A stretch of DNA of 64,000 nucleotides, taken from NCBI RefSeq assembly GCF_055900595.2, contig NZ_CM148325.1. One strand, 5' to 3'. The notes below the pieces were generated by a model, which saw only the letters and a program-made list of their open reading frames with translations, did no database searches and had not been told where the DNA came from. Position 1 is the first letter of the stretch; each line of letters starts with the position of its first letter. The position numbers and the translations under genes were made by a program. This document shows positions 15,831 through 59,199 of this stretch, in pieces.

Positions 15831-15909
15831 CCGGAAAGCGGTTCACAGATCTCGCTTCGAACCAGGCAGGCCTATTGACGCTGTTGTTTTTTCAACCTAA
15901 AGTAAAGGA

Positions 15910-16058
15910 ACAAGGGTAAGGGAGGATTTCTCCCCCCTCTGAATTGGTTGTTAATAAGCCTGGAAACTTACTAGTAACAACACAATCAGTATGATGACGA
16001 ACTTCATCATAACCCTTTCCTTCTATAAGGCCCCTTCTTCGGGAGGGGCTTTCCCGTT
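15910..16058 (+). ncRNA. sibD: Sib-family antisense antitoxin RNA (predicted), fully overlapping ibs copy 1
   Basis: Plus-strand promoter TTGACG(15875-80)-17nt-TAAAGT(15898-903); hairpin gcccct-tcttcggg-aggggc at 16029-16049 followed by T-rich tract. Ends approximate. Confidence 0.5.
15951..16010 (-). CDS. ibsD: Ibs-family type I toxin, 19 aa (MMKFVIILIVLLLVSFQAY)
   Basis: Minus-strand ATGATG at 16010, stop at 15951-15953; hydrophobic peptide matching the Ibs toxin pattern; symbol by position (ibsD/ibsE assignment uncertain). Confidence 0.7.
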   Translation of the reverse strand: MMKFVIILIVLLLVSFQAY

Positions 16059-16286
16059 TCAGCCCCTTGCTGACTCCCCGATTGTTGATGAGCGCCAGAC
16101 CCCGCGCAATGCTTTCCCAGAGGCAGTTTTGCCTTCCCCGAGCAGTCACGCAAAACGCTGCAACAGCCTGATCATTTGCAGTTTTTTGTGGAACACAGAT
16201 ATAAAAAATCCCCGGTTTTTTGGGCCAGGGATATGTGTTAATGAAACCTTCTTGACGCTGATTTTTTTTCAACCTAAAGTAAAGGA

Positions 16287-16434
16287 ACAAGGGTAAGGGA
16301 GGATTTCTCCCCCCTCTGAATGGCCGTTAATAAGCGTGGAAACTTATCAGTAACAGCACAATCAGTATGATGACGAACTTCATCATAACCCTTTCCTTAT
16401 GTAAGGCCCCTTCCTCGGGAGGGGCTTTCCCGTT
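16287..16434 (+). ncRNA. sibE: Sib-family antisense antitoxin RNA (predicted), copy 2
   Basis: Promoter TTGACG(16252-57)-17nt-TAAAGT(16275-80); terminator hairpin 16405-16425 + T tract. Ends approximate. Confidence 0.5.
16327..16386 (-). CDS. ibsE: Ibs-family type I toxin, 19 aa (MMKFVIILIVLLLISFHAY)
   Basis: Second repeat copy; minus-strand ATGATG at 16386, stop 16327-16329. Confidence 0.7.
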   Translation of the reverse strand: MMKFVIILIVLLLISFHAY

Positions 16435-19761: not shown

Positions 19762-19883
19762 TGTAGTTTCCCTGTACTGATAGGTGTTGAGTGCCATTGT
19801 AGTGCGATAAGGGTAAGTCATAAACCAGAATTATGTGAAGCTATGCGTTGCTGCCGCTAATCATTAGCGTTATAGTGAATCCG

Positions 19884-20134
19884 CTTATTCTCAGGGCGGG
19901 GCGAAATTCCCCACCGGCGGTAAATCAACTCAGTTGAAAGCCCGCGAGCGCTTTGGGTGCGAACTCAAAGGACAGCAGATCCGGTGTAATTCCGGGGCCG
20001 ACGGTTAGAGTCCGGATGGGAGAGAGTAACGATTCTGTCGGGCATGGACCCGCTCACGTTATTTTGGCTATATGCCGCCACTCCTAAGACTGCCCTGATT
20101 CTGGTAACCATAATTTTAGTGAGGTTTTTTTACC
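19884..20134 (+). promoter_or_regulatory. FMN riboswitch (RFN element) in ribB leader (sroG region)
   Basis: Conserved RFN aptamer motifs (ttctcagggcggggcgaaattcccc...ggacagcagatccggtgtaattccggggccgacggttagagtccggatgggagag); preceded by promoter TTGCTG(19848)-17-TATAGT(19871). Confidence 0.75.
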
Positions 20135-20820: not shown

Positions 20821-21528
20821 AAATATCCTCCGGCATAGCCGGAGGTTTTTCAAATGCGCCTGTAAGGCTCTGTTACCAGCCGCGCCCTAACAGGCGCATA
20901 CGATCTGACATTTGCATTCAACTTCGTTACTTACGGCCCGTAAACGGGCTGCCCGGATATGGAATCGATAACTGCTCCCCCATTTTATCCTCTTCAAGCT
21001 GGTGCTTTATGTAGTCCTGTATCTTCGCCGTGTTCTTACCCACCGTATCGACATAGTACCCTCGGCACCAGAACTCCCTGTTTCTGTATTTGAATTTCAA
21101 ATCCCCAAACTGCTCGTAAAGCATCAGACTGCTTTTCCCTTTCAGATATCCCATAAAGCCGGATACGCTCATTTTGGGTGGGATTTCCACAAGCATATGG
21201 ATATGATCTGCGCAGCACTCTGCTTCCAGAATCCGTACGCTTTTCCACTCACACAGCTTTCTCAAAATACTGCCTATCGCCCTACGCTTCTCTCCGTAAA
21301 ACGCCAGTCTTCGGTATTTCGGCGCAAAAACTATGTGATATTTACAGTTCCAGCGGGTGTGCGCTAAGCTCTTTTCGTCCCCCATTGGGACCCCCTTTTG
21401 ATTTCTTGTTTGACACTTGCAGTTGCCAGACCGCAAGGTGTTTTAACAAATCAAAAGGGGTTTTAATAACTGGCTCAAAGCTGAAAGCTTTCCGGAACCC
21501 CCAGCCTAGCTGGGGGTTTTCTGTGCAC
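20821..21528 (-). mobile_element. IS200 insertion sequence (~708 bp); ends inferred (+/-20 bp)
   Basis: 152-aa IS200 TnpA; left end (high coordinate) inferred from hairpins at 21495-21517 and 21391-21460, which match the recalled IS200 leader positions (nt 12-34 and 69-138). Confidence 0.65.
20927..21385 (-). CDS. tnpA: IS200 transposase TnpA (Y1/HUH)
   Basis: MGDEKSLAHTRWNCKYHIVFAPKYRR...HIHMLVEIPP...; 152 aa from second in-frame ATG. Confidence 0.9.
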   Translation of the reverse strand: MGDEKSLAHTRWNCKYHIVFAPKYRRLAFYGEKRRAIGSILRKLCEWKSVRILEAECCADHIHMLVEIPPKMSVSGFMGYLKGKSSLMLYEQFGDLKFKYRNREFWCRGYYVDTVGKNTAKIQDYIKHQLEEDKMGEQLSIPYPGSPFTGRK

Positions 21529-46492: not shown

Positions 46493-46596
46493 ACGTTCCT
46501 CCTTTATATGAACTCACCGGAGCAGGCTCCGGTGAGGTGTTGTGAACTTAAGTCTGGACGAAATGCCCGAAAACGAAAGTTTGAGGCGTAAAAAGC

Positions 46597-54063: not shown

Positions 54064-55104
54064 TCATTTATCGGAAGACGCCTGCCACAGATTCAGCTCG
54101 CCATCGGCGATATGCTGATCAATCTGCGCCAGCTCCTCGGTGCTAAATGTCAGATTATTTAGTGCCTGCACATTCTCTTCCAGTTGCTCCGCGCGGCTGG
54201 CACCAATCAATACCGACGTCACTCGCTCATCTTTCAGCAACCAGCTTAACGCCATTTGCGCCATTGATTGTCCACGCTGCTGTGCCATTTCATTCAATAA
54301 CCGCAGGCTGTTGAGGTTGGCTTCGGTGAGCATTTTCGGCGTCAGGCCACGAACTTTATTCCCTTCACGATGCATACGTGAATTTTCAGGAATACCGTTG
54401 AGATATTTGCCGGTCAGCAATCCCTGAGCCAGAGGAGTAAAGGCAATGCAGCCCACGCCGTTATGTTGCAGGGTATCCAGCAGGCCGCTTTTATCCACCC
54501 AGCGGTTCAGCAAATTGTACGAAGGTTGATGAATTAACAGCGGAATTTTCCACTCGCGCAGCAACTCGACCATTTTTTGCGTCCGCTCTGGCGAGTAAGA
54601 GGAGATCCCGACATAAAGCGCCTTACCGCTTTGTACCACATGAGCCAGCGCAGAGGCGGTTTCTTCCATCGGCGTATTTTCATCGACGCGATGAGAGTAA
54701 AAGATATCGACATACTCAAGCCCCATCCGCTTCAGGCTTTGGTCGAGGCTGGCGAGCAGGTATTTACGTGAGCCGCCAGAGCCGTACGGGCCGGGCCACA
54801 TATCGTATCCGGCTTTGGTAGAGATAATCAGTTCATCGCGATAAGCGGCAAAATCCTCCCGCAGCAGGCGACCAAAGTTCTCTTCTGCGCTTCCTGGAGG
54901 CGGCCCGTAATTGTTGGCTAAATCAAAGTGCGTAATGCCCAAATCAAACGCTTTGCGCAGGATCGCACGCTGTGATTCCAGTGCGTTAACGTGACCGAAA
55001 TTGTGCCATAAACCGAGCGATAACGCGGGCAGGCGTAAACCGCTTTTTCCGCAATAGCGGTATTGCATCTGCCCGTAACGTTCGGGATTCGCTAACCAGA
55101 CCAT
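54064..55104 (-). CDS. gpr: L-glyceraldehyde 3-phosphate reductase (aldo-keto reductase)
   Basis: 346-aa product from MVWLANPERYGQMQYRYCGKSGLRLPALSLGLW...; track ORF has a 37-codon extension. Confidence 0.9.
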   Translation of the reverse strand: MVWLANPERYGQMQYRYCGKSGLRLPALSLGLWHNFGHVNALESQRAILRKAFDLGITHFDLANNYGPPPGSAEENFGRLLREDFAAYRDELIISTKAGYDMWPGPYGSGGSRKYLLASLDQSLKRMGLEYVDIFYSHRVDENTPMEETASALAHVVQSGKALYVGISSYSPERTQKMVELLREWKIPLLIHQPSYNLLNRWVDKSGLLDTLQHNGVGCIAFTPLAQGLLTGKYLNGIPENSRMHREGNKVRGLTPKMLTEANLNSLRLLNEMAQQRGQSMAQMALSWLLKDERVTSVLIGASRAEQLEENVQALNNLTFSTEELAQIDQHIADGELNLWQASSDK

Positions 55105-55791
55105 GACCTCTCCTTTCCACCATTCAATTTCGAAACAATGTTTCCAGTTTAGCGATTTACCAGGGGGGATCCCGTAGCATCGCTCACAGTGTGACGAAAA
55201 ACTGGGCAAAAACACGTGCTTATGCTTTGCTTAAAAAAACACCAATTAAGGAGTGCAATGATGCCGCGTCTGACCGCTAAAGATTTCCCACAAGAGTTGC
55301 TGGATTACTACGACTATTACGCTCACGGGAAAATTTCGAAACGTGAGTTCCTCAACCTTGCGGCGAAGTATGCGGTGGGCGGGATGACGGCATTAGCGTT
55401 GTTTGATTTGCTCAAGCCAAATTATGCGCTGGCGACTCAGGTAGAGTTTACCGACCCGGAAATTGTTGCTGAGTACATCACGTATTCTTCGCCAAATGGT
55501 CACGGCGAGGTACGGGGTTATCTGGTGAAGCCCGCAAAGATGAGCGGCAAAACGCCAGCCGTGGTGGTGGTGCATGAGAATCGTGGACTGAATCCGTATA
55601 TCGAAGATGTGGCACGGCGAGTAGCGAAGGCGGGGTATATCGCCCTGGCACCTGACGGCTTAAGTTCCGTTGGAGGTTATCCGGGTAATGATGATAAAGG
55701 TCGTGAGCTGCAACAGCAGGTTGATCCAACCAAACTGATGAATGATTTCTTTGCCGCAATTGAGTTTATGCAACGCTATCCGCAAGCGACA

Positions 55792-55800
55792 GGCAAAGTG
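55792..55800. repeat. 9-bp target site duplication (GGCAAAGTG), left copy
   Basis: Identical 9-mer directly flanks both IS10 ends. Confidence 0.85.
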
Positions 55801-55813
55801 CTGAGAGATCCCC

Positions 55814-57022
55814 TCATAATTTCCCCAAAACGTAACCATGTGTGAATAGATTTTGAGTAAGCAGGGTTGCAGCCACGAGTGAGTCTTCCCTTGTTATTGT
55901 GTAGCCAGAATGCCGCAAAACTTCCATGCCTAAGCGAACTGTTGAGAGTACGTTTCGATTTCTGACTGTGTTAGCCTGGAAGTGCTTGTCCCAACCTTGT
56001 TTCTGAGCATGAACGCCCGCAAGCCAACATGTTAGTTGAAGCATCAGGGCGATTAGCAGCATGATATCAAAACGCTCTGAGCTGCTCGTTCGGCTATGGC
56101 GTAGGCCTAGTCCGTAGGCAGGACTTTTCAAGTCTCGGAAGGTTTCTTCAATCTGCATTCGCTTCGAATAGATATTAACAAGTTGTTTGGGTGTTCGAAT
56201 TTCAACAGGTAAGTTAGTTGCTAGAATCCATGGCTCCTTTGCCGACGCTGAGTAGATTTTAGGTGACGGGTGGTGACAATGAGTCCGTGTCGAGCGCTGA
56301 TTTTTTCGGCCTTTAGAGCGAGATTTATACAATAGAATTTGGCATGAGATTGGATTGCTTTTAGTCAGCCTCTTATAGCCTAAAGTCTTTGAGTGACTAG
56401 ATGACATATCATGTAAGTTGCTGATAGGTTTCCAGTTTTCCGCTCCTAGGTCTGCATATTGTACTTTTCCTCTTACTCGACTTAACCAGTACCAACCCAG
56501 CTTCTCAACGGATTTATACCATGGCACTTTAAAGCCAGCATCACTGACAATGAGCGGTGTGGTGTTACTCGGTAGAATGCTCGCAAGGTCGGCTAGAAAT
56601 TGGTCATGAGCTTTCTTTGAACATTGCTCTGAAAGCGGGAACGCTTTCTCATAAAGAGTAACAGAACGACCGTGTAGTGCGACTGAAGCTCGCAATACCA
56701 TAAGCCGTTTTTGCTCACGGATATCAGACCAGTCAACAAGTACAATGGGCATCGTATTGCCCGAACAGATAAAGCTAGCATGCCAACGGTATACAGCGAG
56801 TCGCTCTTTGTGGAGGTGACGATTACCTAACAATCGGTCGATTCGTTTGATGTTATGTTTTGTTCTCGCTTTGGTTGGCAGGTTACGGCCAAGTTCGGTA
56901 AGAGTGAGAGTTTTACAGTCAAGTAAGGCGTGGCAAGCCAACGTTAAGCTGTTGAGTCGTTTTAAGTGTAATTCGGGGCAGAATTGGTAAAGAGAGTCGT
57001 GTAAAATATCGAGTTCGCACAT
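55814..57022 (-). CDS. tnp: IS10 transposase (IS4 family, DDE)
   Basis: 402-aa ORF MCELDILHDSLYQFCPELHLKRLNSLTLACHALLDCKTLTLTELGRNLPTKARTKHNIKRIDRLLGN... Confidence 0.95.
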   Translation of the reverse strand: MCELDILHDSLYQFCPELHLKRLNSLTLACHALLDCKTLTLTELGRNLPTKARTKHNIKRIDRLLGNRHLHKERLAVYRWHASFICSGNTMPIVLVDWSDIREQKRLMVLRASVALHGRSVTLYEKAFPLSEQCSKKAHDQFLADLASILPSNTTPLIVSDAGFKVPWYKSVEKLGWYWLSRVRGKVQYADLGAENWKPISNLHDMSSSHSKTLGYKRLTKSNPISCQILLYKSRSKGRKNQRSTRTHCHHPSPKIYSASAKEPWILATNLPVEIRTPKQLVNIYSKRMQIEETFRDLKSPAYGLGLRHSRTSSSERFDIMLLIALMLQLTCWLAGVHAQKQGWDKHFQANTVRNRNVLSTVRLGMEVLRHSGYTITREDSLVAATLLTQNLFTHGYVLGKL

Positions 57023-57083
57023 TTTGTTGTCTGATTATTGATTTTTGGCGAAACCATTTGATCATATGACAAGATGTGTATCC
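57015..57083 (+). ncRNA. IS10 RNA-OUT antisense RNA (predicted from IS10 coordinates)
   Basis: Corresponds to IS10 bp 115-47; sequence tcgcacattttgttgtctgattattgatttttggcgaaaccatttgatcatatgacaagatgtgtatcc is antisense to the transposase start; GATC (dam) site in the pIN -10 region. Confidence 0.5.
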
Positions 57084-57129
57084 ACCTTAACTTAATGATT
57101 TTTACCAAAATCATTAGGGGATTCATCAG

Positions 57130-57138
57130 GGCAAAGTG
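57130..57138. repeat. 9-bp target site duplication (GGCAAAGTG), right copy
   Basis: Identical to 55792-55800. Confidence 0.85.
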
Positions 57139-57604
57139 GGTATTACCGGATTTTGCTATGGCGGTGGTGTATCGAACGCGGCGGCTGTCGCGTATCCGGA
57201 ACTGGCCTGCGCGGTGCCGTTTTATGGTCGTCAGGCACCCACTGCCGATGTGGCGAAGATTGAAGCGCCTTTACTGCTCCACTACGCGGAACTGGATACC
57301 CGAATCAACGAGGGCTGGCCCGCTTACGAGGCGGCGTTGAAAGCCAATAATAAGGTCTATGAGGCGTATATCTATCCGGGGGTTAATCACGGATTCCATA
57401 ATGATTCCACGCCCCGTTATGACAAATCTGCCGCCGATCTTGCCTGGCAAAGGACGCTGAAATGGTTCGATAAATATCTCTCCTGATAGGTTTATCTCTT
57501 ACGGGATTACGTCTTAAACAAGCATGAAAAAATAGCGTGCGCAAAAGTCGTTCTTTGCCTAAAATATCGCTATATATGACAATATATAGCGAATGAGGTG
57601 AACG

Positions 57605-57892
57605 ATGAATAACCATTTTGGTAAAGGCTTAATGGCGGGATTAAAAGCAACGCATGCCGACAGTGCGGTTAATGTGACAAAATACTGTGCCGGTTATAAA
57701 CGCGGTTTTGTATTAGGCTACTCACACCGGATGTACGAAAAGACCGGAGATCGCCAGCTTAGCGCCTGGGAAGCGGGGATTCTGACGCGCCGCTATGGAC
57801 TGGATAAAGAGATGGTAATGGATTTCTTTCGTGAGAATAATTCCTGTTCTACGTTGCGCTTTTTTATGGCCGGTTATCGCCTCGAAAATTGA
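57605..57892 (+). CDS. yghW: DUF2623 protein YghW
   Basis: 95-aa [38 protein letters not shown]... Confidence 0.75.
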
Positions 57893-58080
57893 TCAAACAT
57901 ACGTATTATCTTGCTTTAATTAATTACACTAATGCTTATTCCCTTCGTTTTAGTGCCCCGCCGCAGTATCATGATATCGATAACCATAATAAATGTGTGG
58001 TAAATGGCGCATCGATCGCATTATTGATTTTGCGATTGAGGCAAAATATATGCCAGGTCTTCGCAACGGAATAACTATAA

Positions 58081-59199
58081 ATGACTGGAGATAACACCCT
58101 CATCCATTCTCACGGCATTAACCGTCGTGATTTCATGAAGCTTTGTGCAGCATTAGCCGCCACCATGGGGTTAAGTAGCAAAGCCGCTGCAGAGATGGCC
58201 GAATCGGTTACTAACCCGCAGCGTCCGCCAGTTATCTGGATTGGCGCGCAGGAGTGCACCGGTTGTACGGAATCTCTGCTTCGTGCAACGCATCCAACGG
58301 TAGAAAACCTCATGCTGGAGACGATCTCTCTGGAGTATCACGAAGTGCTTTCCGCCGCCTTCGGTCATCAGGTCGAAGAGAACAAACATAACGCTCTTGA
58401 GAAGTACAAAGGGCAGTATGTGTTAGTGGTAGATGGTTCCATCCCATTAAAAGATAATGGTATTTATTGCATGGTTGCTGGTGAGCCGATTGTGGATCAC
58501 ATCCGCAAAGCGGCGGAAGGCGCAGCAGCCATTATCGCTATCGGTTCCTGCTCTGCGTGGGGCGGTGTTGCTGCAGCTGGAGTTAACCCAACTGGCGCTG
58601 TCAGCCTGCAAGAAGTTCTGCCGGGCAAAACCGTTATCAACATTCCGGGCTGCCCACCGAACCCGCACAACTTCCTCGCGACCGTTGCGCACATCATCAC
58701 TTACGGCAAACCGCCGAAACTGGATGACAAAAACCGTCCGACTTTCGCCTATGGCCGTCTGATTCACGAACACTGCGAACGCCGCCCGCACTTCGATGCT
58801 GGTCGTTTTGCCAAAGAGTTCGGTGATGAAGGCCACCGCGAAGGCTGGTGCCTGTACCACCTCGGCTGTAAAGGGCCAGAAACTTACGGCAACTGCTCAA
58901 CGCTGCAATTCTGCGATGTTGGTGGTGTGTGGCCGGTGGCGATTGGTCACCCGTGCTATGGCTGTAACGAAGAAGGTATCGGCTTCCATAAAGGCATCCA
59001 TCAGCTTGCCAACGTCGAAAACCAGACTCCGCGTTCGCAGAAACCGGATGTTAACGCTAAAGAGGGCGGCAACGTCTCTGCGGGCGCTATCGGTTTGCTC
59101 GGCGGTGTGGTTGGGCTGGTTGCCGGTGTCAGCGTGATGGCGGTGCGTGAACTGGGTCGTCAGCAAAAGAAAGATAACGCTGACTCACGGGGAGAATAA
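58081..59199 (+). CDS. hybO: [NiFe] hydrogenase 2 small subunit
   Basis: 372-aa ORF with Tat signal ([16 protein letters not shown]) and Fe-S cysteine motifs. Confidence 0.95.

Follow-up and report, generated by a model that had tools for sequence, protein, structure and literature searches.

This locus raises the question of which kind of IS10 has interrupted yghX and whether the control region at the outside end of the element is the one expected of a canonical copy. IS10 is an insertion sequence of the IS4 family, and the control of its transposase by RNA-IN, RNA-OUT and Dam methylation is already known and among the best-studied antisense systems. The original prediction, made from the letters of the window (the whole 64-kb stretch of DNA that we analysed), was that an intact IS10 antisense control region, to be compared with IS10-Right, lies at 57010-57090. 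We find it highly probable that this interval controls the transposase of a complete and recently inserted IS10 that is of the IS10-Left type and has a Right-like outer 47 bp.

The element itself has what a complete IS10 should have, i.e., a length of 1329 bp, an outside and an inside end, a single transposase ORF of 402 aa, and a 9-bp target duplication (Table 1). Its outside-end repeat CTGATGAATCCCCTAATGATTTT was found once in the 64-kb window (0.00 occurrences expected by chance), and the search with this end gave a single IS10 copy there. A decayed or partial insertion sequence was rejected in view of the intact ORF, ends, and duplication. The insertion point lies after codon 180 of yghX, and the 5' frame of the gene continues for 15 codons inside IS10 before it meets a stop. 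Flanking DNA is 100% identical to that of eight genomes including E. coli Z0117EC0005, which carries an uninterrupted yghX of 295 aa. A 600-nt empty site that we reconstructed with a single copy of GGCAAAGTG was matched exactly in this relative, and the split halves of yghX show no mismatch to its intact allele over 888 nt. A search of 5426 complete E. coli genomes did not find the yghX::IS10 junction. Given the empty site in a relative, the perfect match of both yghX halves, and the absence of the junction from these genomes, the insertion is a genuine transposition event, apparently a recent one, and has newly inactivated yghX in the strain carrying the window.

Table 1. Positions of the IS10 element, its control region and the flanking genes in the 64-kb window (nt n of IS10 is window position 57130-n).
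Feature	IS10 nt	Window position	Strand	Basis or remark
Complete IS10, 1329 bp		55801..57129	-	Ungapped full-length alignment to both R100 Tn10 IS10 copies
Inside end (begins CTGAGAGATCCCC)		55801		Read from sequence
Outside end		57129		Read from sequence
Outside-end terminal repeat CTGATGAATCCCCTAATGATTTT, 23 bp	1-23	57107..57129	-	Exact match
Target-site duplication GGCAAAGTG, 9 bp, left copy		55792..55800		Direct repeat
Target-site duplication GGCAAAGTG, 9 bp, right copy		57130..57138		Direct repeat
yghX 5' fragment, codons 1-180		55261..55800	+
yghX 3' fragment, codons 181-295 and stop		57139..57486	+	Downstream of pOUT
Transposase ORF, 402 aa		55814..57022	-	Sole long ORF of the element
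Transposase ATG	108-110	57022-57020	-	Inside the RNA-OUT interval
RNA-OUT, 69 nt	115 to 47	57015..57083	+	RF00240; length and 3' end from PMC5006887
RNA-IN start	81	57049	-
RNA-IN/RNA-OUT overlap, 35 bp	81-115	57015..57049		Spans RNA-IN 5' end, ribosome-binding region and ATG
Variant, G in IS10-Right, C here	83	57047		RNA-IN +3; RNA-OUT loop position 33 (C>G)
Variant, G in IS10-Right, A here	107	57023		-1 of ATG; RNA-OUT stem position 9 (C>U)
pIN -10-like TCAAAT	69-74	57056-57061	-	GATC overlaps; region 57056..57063
pIN -35-like TGGATA	46-51	57079..57084	-	Inferred from 17-bp spacing to -10
pOUT promoter region		about 56975..57014	+	Identity of nt 108-409 to IS10-Right
pOUT -10-like TAAAAT		57002-57007	+	8-13 nt upstream of RNA-OUT start
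Dam site GATC	67-70	57060-57063		Overlaps pIN -10 region
Second Dam site GATC, inside end	1320-1323	55807..55810
IHF-site-like AATCATTAAGTTA	30-42	57088..57100	-	At outside end
yghW, 95 aa		57605..57892	+	First gene beyond yghX that pOUT read-out would reach
hybO		58081-59199	+	Downstream of pOUT

For classification of this copy, the two IS10 copies of Tn10 on plasmid R100 (NC_002134) were used for comparison (the reference record of IS10-Right is J01829), and the R100 arms were assigned by their neighbours with IS10-Right on the side of tetD and IS10-Left on the side of the gltS homologue. The window IS10 differs from R100 IS10-Right at 11 positions (nt 83, 107, 410, 425, 903, 1249, 1268, 1271, 1272, 1281, and 1300) and carries the IS10-Left allele at every one of them, while it differs from R100 IS10-Left at 4 positions (nt 24, 25, 27, and 47), each with the IS10-Right allele. 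Its transposase is identical to the R100 IS10-Left protein WP_001352368.1, and four residues (V266I, L381S, A389T, and A398V) set it apart from that of IS10-Right. The element thus lacks G83, G107, and the Right transposase, being 11 nt and 4 aa off, and it does not carry IS10-Left alleles along its whole length either, with Left-type alleles from nt 83 to 1300 and Right-type ones at nt 24, 25, 27, and 47. By these alignments, the window IS10 is a mosaic in which the outer 47 bp are IS10-Right-like and the control region and body are of the IS10-Left type.

The innermost of the Right-type positions, nt 47, falls within the pIN -35-like hexamer; it is G in the window and in IS10-Right and A in R100 IS10-Left, but it is polymorphic among IS10-Left copies: In E. 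coli 4/2-1, which has a bona fide Tn10, the left arm of this transposon carries G47. This arm is identical to the window IS10 except for nt 24, 25, and 27, and its 96-nt control region (nt 30-125) is the same as in the window. As an arm of a transposon, the IS10-Left of Tn10 differs from the window copy, which is a solitary insertion sequence. IS10-Right of Tn10 shares with the window copy the length of 1329 bp, the architecture, and the coordinates and predicted fold of RNA-OUT but is set apart by its 11 substitutions, 2 of them in the antisense overlap, and by the four altered amino acids.

The frequency of the different control regions was assessed by a census of complete E. coli genomes with a 96-nt query (IS10 nt 30-125), for which one mismatch already lowers identity to below 99%. 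IS10 was found in about 2050 records and, with each record represented by its best place, the IS10-Right type (nt 47/83/107 = G/G/G) was matched exactly in 1712 E. coli records, the R100 IS10-Left type (A/C/A) in 622, and the window type (G/C/A) in 22 to 23. A scan across species, using one genome per species and IUPAC codes at nt 83 and 107, returned 12 loci, which are too few for a census and comprise 6 of the IS10-Right type, 4 of the IS10-Left type, and 2 C83/G107 recombinants; the window haplotype was seen at none of these 12 loci. That this is simply IS10-Right with the control region of the textbooks is refuted by the alignment to the R100 copies and can practically be discarded. In favour of this reading, the outside 82 nt (with the pIN -35, -10, and GATC) and nt 108-409 (with pOUT) match R100 IS10-Right exactly and this type of control region is by far the commonest in E. 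coli; against it, 11 positions differ, nt 83 and 107 lie within the antisense overlap, and the transposase is four residues off and equal to the IS10-Left protein. For annotation, the copy is best treated as IS10-Left-type (PGAP: ISVsa5-family) rather than as IS10-Right.

The antisense RNA itself is readily recognized. On the plus strand, Rfam family RF00240 (RNA-OUT) aligns to 57015-57084 with its entire model (positions 1-70 of 70) and scores 97.3 bits (E = 5.4e-21; gathering score 41), and a scan of the whole window gave the same match. RNA-OUT is 69 nt long, terminates at IS10 nt 47, and is perfectly complementary over its first 35 nt to the part of the transposase mRNA where translation is initiated (PMC5006887); we derived the coordinates of RNA-OUT and RNA-IN from this length, 3' end, and complementarity. 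In the window, these antisense 35 nt cover the 5' end, the ribosome-binding region, and the start codon of the mRNA, and the cognate 35-bp duplex is perfect with a predicted energy of -58.1 kcal/mol (IS10-Right cognate: -60.2 kcal/mol). The predicted shape is a long stem (positions 3-16 with 52-65) under a weakly paired loop domain, with a minimum free energy (MFE) of -21.3 kcal/mol and a z-score of -4.0, and the RF00240 alignment flags no non-standard pair. The full-length match and the start codon inside it bear out that RNA-OUT lies on the plus strand across the transposase start. Its proposed interval of 57010-57090 does enclose RNA-OUT, but pOUT falls just to the left of it. A separate match to ryfA at 57305-57340 (13 bits versus a gathering score of 80) was discarded as chance.

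The promoters had to be judged in a different way. A generic sigma-70 promoter and terminator scan of 56800-57300 gave no matches, pIN and pOUT included, but its criterion of at least 9/12 matches misses known weak or atypical promoters, so that this blank is expected for the weak pIN and uninformative on pOUT, and we therefore relied on identity to IS10-Right instead. For pOUT, TTGGTA was not accepted as the -35 element because it is just 12 bp away from TAAAAT. GATC occurs exactly twice in the element, and both Dam sites of IS10, at the pIN -10 region and at the inside end, are present by sequence. At the outside end, AATCATTAAGTTA is a putative IHF site. The predicted GATC in the pIN -10 region was found in its place, in line with the overlap of a Dam site and the pIN -10 described for IS10 (PMC5006887).

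Two of the 69 nt of RNA-OUT differ from the IS10-Right version, and both stem from the variants in the antisense overlap. The change at nt 83 places a G at loop position 33, as in the RF00240 consensus, and the change at nt 107 turns the stem pair C9-G59 into U9·G59, with a G·U pair where the consensus has C at position 9. The predicted fold is the same in both types, and the MFE of -21.3 kcal/mol in the window compares with -23.9 kcal/mol for IS10-Right, a loss of 2.6 kcal/mol in predicted stem stability that is due wholly to U9·G59. Cognate pairing remains perfect because RNA-IN and RNA-OUT are both copied from the same DNA, and both changes are conservative according to these models.

Since the sequence is not that of IS10-Right and the RNA-OUT stem carries a conservative change, the original prediction is supported only in part. 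The control region deserves to be called intact as a structure, undisrupted and with its Dam site present, but not as an IS10-Right region, given the 2 differing nucleotides of RNA-OUT. Likewise, the expected agreement with IS10-Right extends to the pIN, GATC, and pOUT regions but breaks down at the 11 positions with IS10-Left alleles. The prediction had further staked itself on the pOUT elements and the RNA-OUT stem showing no divergence; the pOUT region is indeed identical to IS10-Right, but the stem is changed at nt 107, which formally contradicts it.

By analogy to the IS10 literature, transcription, RNA stability, and repression at this element would follow the established scheme. The weak pIN would start RNA-IN, i.e., the transposase mRNA, on the minus strand at 57049, while pOUT, described as a typical promoter, would start the 69-nt RNA-OUT on the plus strand at 57015. 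The 5' end of RNA-IN is unstructured, and Hfq aids pairing (PMC5006887, PMC4737173, PMC1994261). The loop of RNA-OUT would meet this 5' end first and pairing would begin there, as pairing is seeded by the contact of loop and 5' end (PMC4737173, PMC4033574), and the resulting duplex would block ribosome binding. Transposase would thus be limited when several IS10 copies are present (multicopy inhibition), and the antisense effect is known to matter mainly under these circumstances (PMC5006887, PMC4737173, PMC1994261), with a single-copy IS10 being little affected by RNA-OUT (PMC5006887). Full Dam methylation of the -10 region would additionally hold pIN low except just after replication.

It could be argued that this region is present but forms part of a weakened relic, in which the four amino acid substitutions and the IS10-Left alleles at nt 83 and 107 make for a poorly expressed or poorly active element and the G·U pair shortens the half-life of RNA-OUT. 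We consider this unlikely, though several observations point in its direction. IS10-Left has been called functionally defective or inactive (Foster 1981, as cited in PMC11148124), and, to the extent that this secondhand account goes, the IS10-Left-type transposase may have a lower activity or a lower expression. The predicted RNA-OUT stem is less stable by the 2.6 kcal/mol given above, and the single stem changes R5 and HH104 destabilise RNA-OUT, whose function depends on the stability of its stem (PMC5006887); the U9 variant may therefore have a shorter half-life and weaken control quantitatively. The exact control-region haplotype is also rare, as the 22 to 23 E. coli records of the census illustrate.

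Against a relic stands that the same element is found elsewhere. In E. coli 55989, an identical 1329-bp IS10 occupies a site between dkgB and yafC, flanked by the duplication GATTAAGCC, and another one is found within cdgI in E. coli isolate AF56 with the duplication AACAAAGTG, so that the identical element is known from three loci with a target duplication of its own at each. Its occurrence elsewhere in these two genomes shows the window allele to be mobile. The insertion into yghX appears recent, with no mismatch in the gene and a junction that is absent from all 5426 complete genomes, and an IS10-Left copy has transposed onto a plasmid in NEB5alpha (PMC11481808). Furthermore, the C83/A107 control region as such is common, given that its R100 IS10-Left version (A47) was matched exactly in 622 records, and some genomes with the window type have 28 to 40 IS10 places. 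G·U is a standard pair, and the RF00240 alignment accordingly raises no flag at this position. The same allele at other loci, the recent insertion into yghX, and the jump of an IS10-Left copy in NEB5alpha together suggest that the window allele is a living element.

Another possibility is an outward effect of the insertion, in that the chief local consequence might be the action of pOUT as a mobile promoter for the yghX 3' fragment, yghW, and possibly hybO. The gene positions agree with the original prediction that pOUT reads on the plus strand toward the outside end, the yghX 3' fragment, and yghW, and pOUT also faces hybO. Termination of RNA-OUT within the insertion sequence, as had been expected, holds for the 69-nt species that ends at nt 47, but pOUT is known from experiments to read out into flanking DNA: The otsBA genes were activated by IS10 insertions whose pOUT faced them (PMC2744996), and a review gives a level of about 10% of lacUV5 for such read-out (PMC9330008). 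Prediction on the plus strand from 57000 to 58200 gave no terminator-like site, and the only hairpins in the fold of 57015-57160 were that of RNA-OUT and an A/U-rich one formed by the outside-end repeat. However, between the IS end and yghW lie about 475 nt of yghX fragment that would be translated poorly or not at all, which would favour Rho-dependent termination, and the native upstream regions of yghW and the hyb operon are kept. Moreover, outward transcription would add to the antisense function rather than replace it. We regard it as doubtful that read-out is the main effect and retain the transposase control region of an IS10-Left-type element as our reading of the interval; at the same time, pOUT now faces yghW and the hyb operon and could alter their expression.

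Apart from annotation, the significance of this locus is slight, and the exact element is already present in public genomes. The variant at nt 83 nevertheless leads to a more general, tentative idea: Natural IS10 copies could fall into two antisense specificity classes, one with G83 (Right type) and one with C83 (Left type, as in the window). Position 83 forms the third base pair of the seed between the RNA-OUT loop and the 5' end of RNA-IN, and in crosses between the Right type and the window type this pair would become a C·C or G·G mismatch. For the two crosses, the predicted energies of the 5-nt seed are -0.4 and -1.2 kcal/mol versus -4.6 and -5.2 kcal/mol for the cognate pairs, and full-duplex energies are -47.8 and -54.2 kcal/mol versus -58.1 and -60.2 kcal/mol. 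Because of this seed mismatch, Left-type and Right-type copies may only partly inhibit each other.

The specificity of RNA-IN/RNA-OUT pairing is governed by a 5-bp seed (PMC4033574), and mutations in this seed have yielded orthogonal pairs (PMC4737173). In the engineered orthogonal RNA-IN/RNA-OUT pairs of Mutalik et al. 2012, as far as they are described in PMC4033574 and PMC4737173, the seed is changed in both partners together, just as it is by the substitution at nt 83. These pairs were designed, whereas nt 83 of the window is a natural variant at a single position with a specificity that is predicted from energies. The idea of such classes may already have been treated in the classical IS10 literature (Kittle et al. 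1989; Halling et al. 1982). If true, IS10 lineages, including the two arms of Tn10, would partly escape mutual multicopy inhibition and could raise their copy number independently within one genome. The C83 allele provides a naturally occurring case for examining how a seed mismatch affects specificity between IS10 lineages in the same cell.

The chromosomal Tn10 of E. coli 4/2-1 (NZ_CP023834.1, 2090871-2100017) carries an IS10-Left with G at nt 47, the position that is A in IS10-Left of R100, so that across the control region (nt 30-125) it matches the window copy exactly. This position lies within the pIN -35-like hexamer and also at the 3' end of RNA-OUT. The two other variant positions of the control region, nt 83 and nt 107, are not strictly linked, since the haplotype C83/G107 occurs in the IS10-like copies L008 and L016 (contigs of Vibrio sp. 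Isolate32 and V. cincinnatiensis). Beyond its matched region, L016 is either divergent or out of register, because 504 of its 1329 positions mismatch each reference in an ungapped, position-by-position comparison.

At least 40 IS10 match pieces were found in E. coli ET12567 (NZ_CP045457.1), a laboratory strain that was derived by construction from GM2929 according to its record and that is known as dam- dcm-. This number is consistent with an expansion of IS10 after loss of Dam control.

The inside end of IS10 is described to contain the outward promoters pIII and OUTIIp between nt 1000 and nt 1230 (PMC11481808), and the stretch holding them in the window copy has the same sequence as IS10-Right. 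In this copy, both promoters would be directed antisense through the yghX 5' fragment and toward gpr (see the table).

Features of the window around the IS10 insertion and additional Rfam RNAs
Feature	Position	Strand	Remark
Sib antitoxin RNA	15875-16025		Rfam, above gathering score
Sib antitoxin RNA	16252-16401		Rfam, above gathering score
FMN riboswitch	19883-20031		Rfam, above gathering score
STnc490	21395-21518		Rfam, above gathering score
ES173 sRNA	46531-46594		Rfam, above gathering score
gpr	end at 54064	minus	ORF
yghX fragment	55261-55800		YghX-family hydrolase, 295 aa when whole
IS10 inside-end segment	55801-56130	minus	IS10 nt 1000-1329
yghX fragment	57139-57486		YghX-family hydrolase, 295 aa when whole

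Between yghX and yghW lies a 26-bp near-perfect palindrome, TCGCTATATATTGTCATATATAGCGA (57567-57592). A scan called it terminator-like, but in the minus-strand orientation alone, and its possible roles are to bind a regulator or to terminate convergent transcription.

The 9-bp target duplication is GGCAAAGTG for the window copy (57130-57138) and AACAAAGTG for the AF56 copy (flanking locus L018). The two have CAAAGTG in common, and both match the IS10 target consensus GCTNAGC (as quoted in PMC2744996) imperfectly. In the window, IS10 interrupts yghX past codon 180, and both halves of the gene agree at every position with the uninterrupted yghX of E. coli Z0117EC0005. Judging from these sequence comparisons, the yghX knockout is recent and private to the window's strain or lineage, because the same insertion was found in none of the 5426 complete E. 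coli genomes searched.
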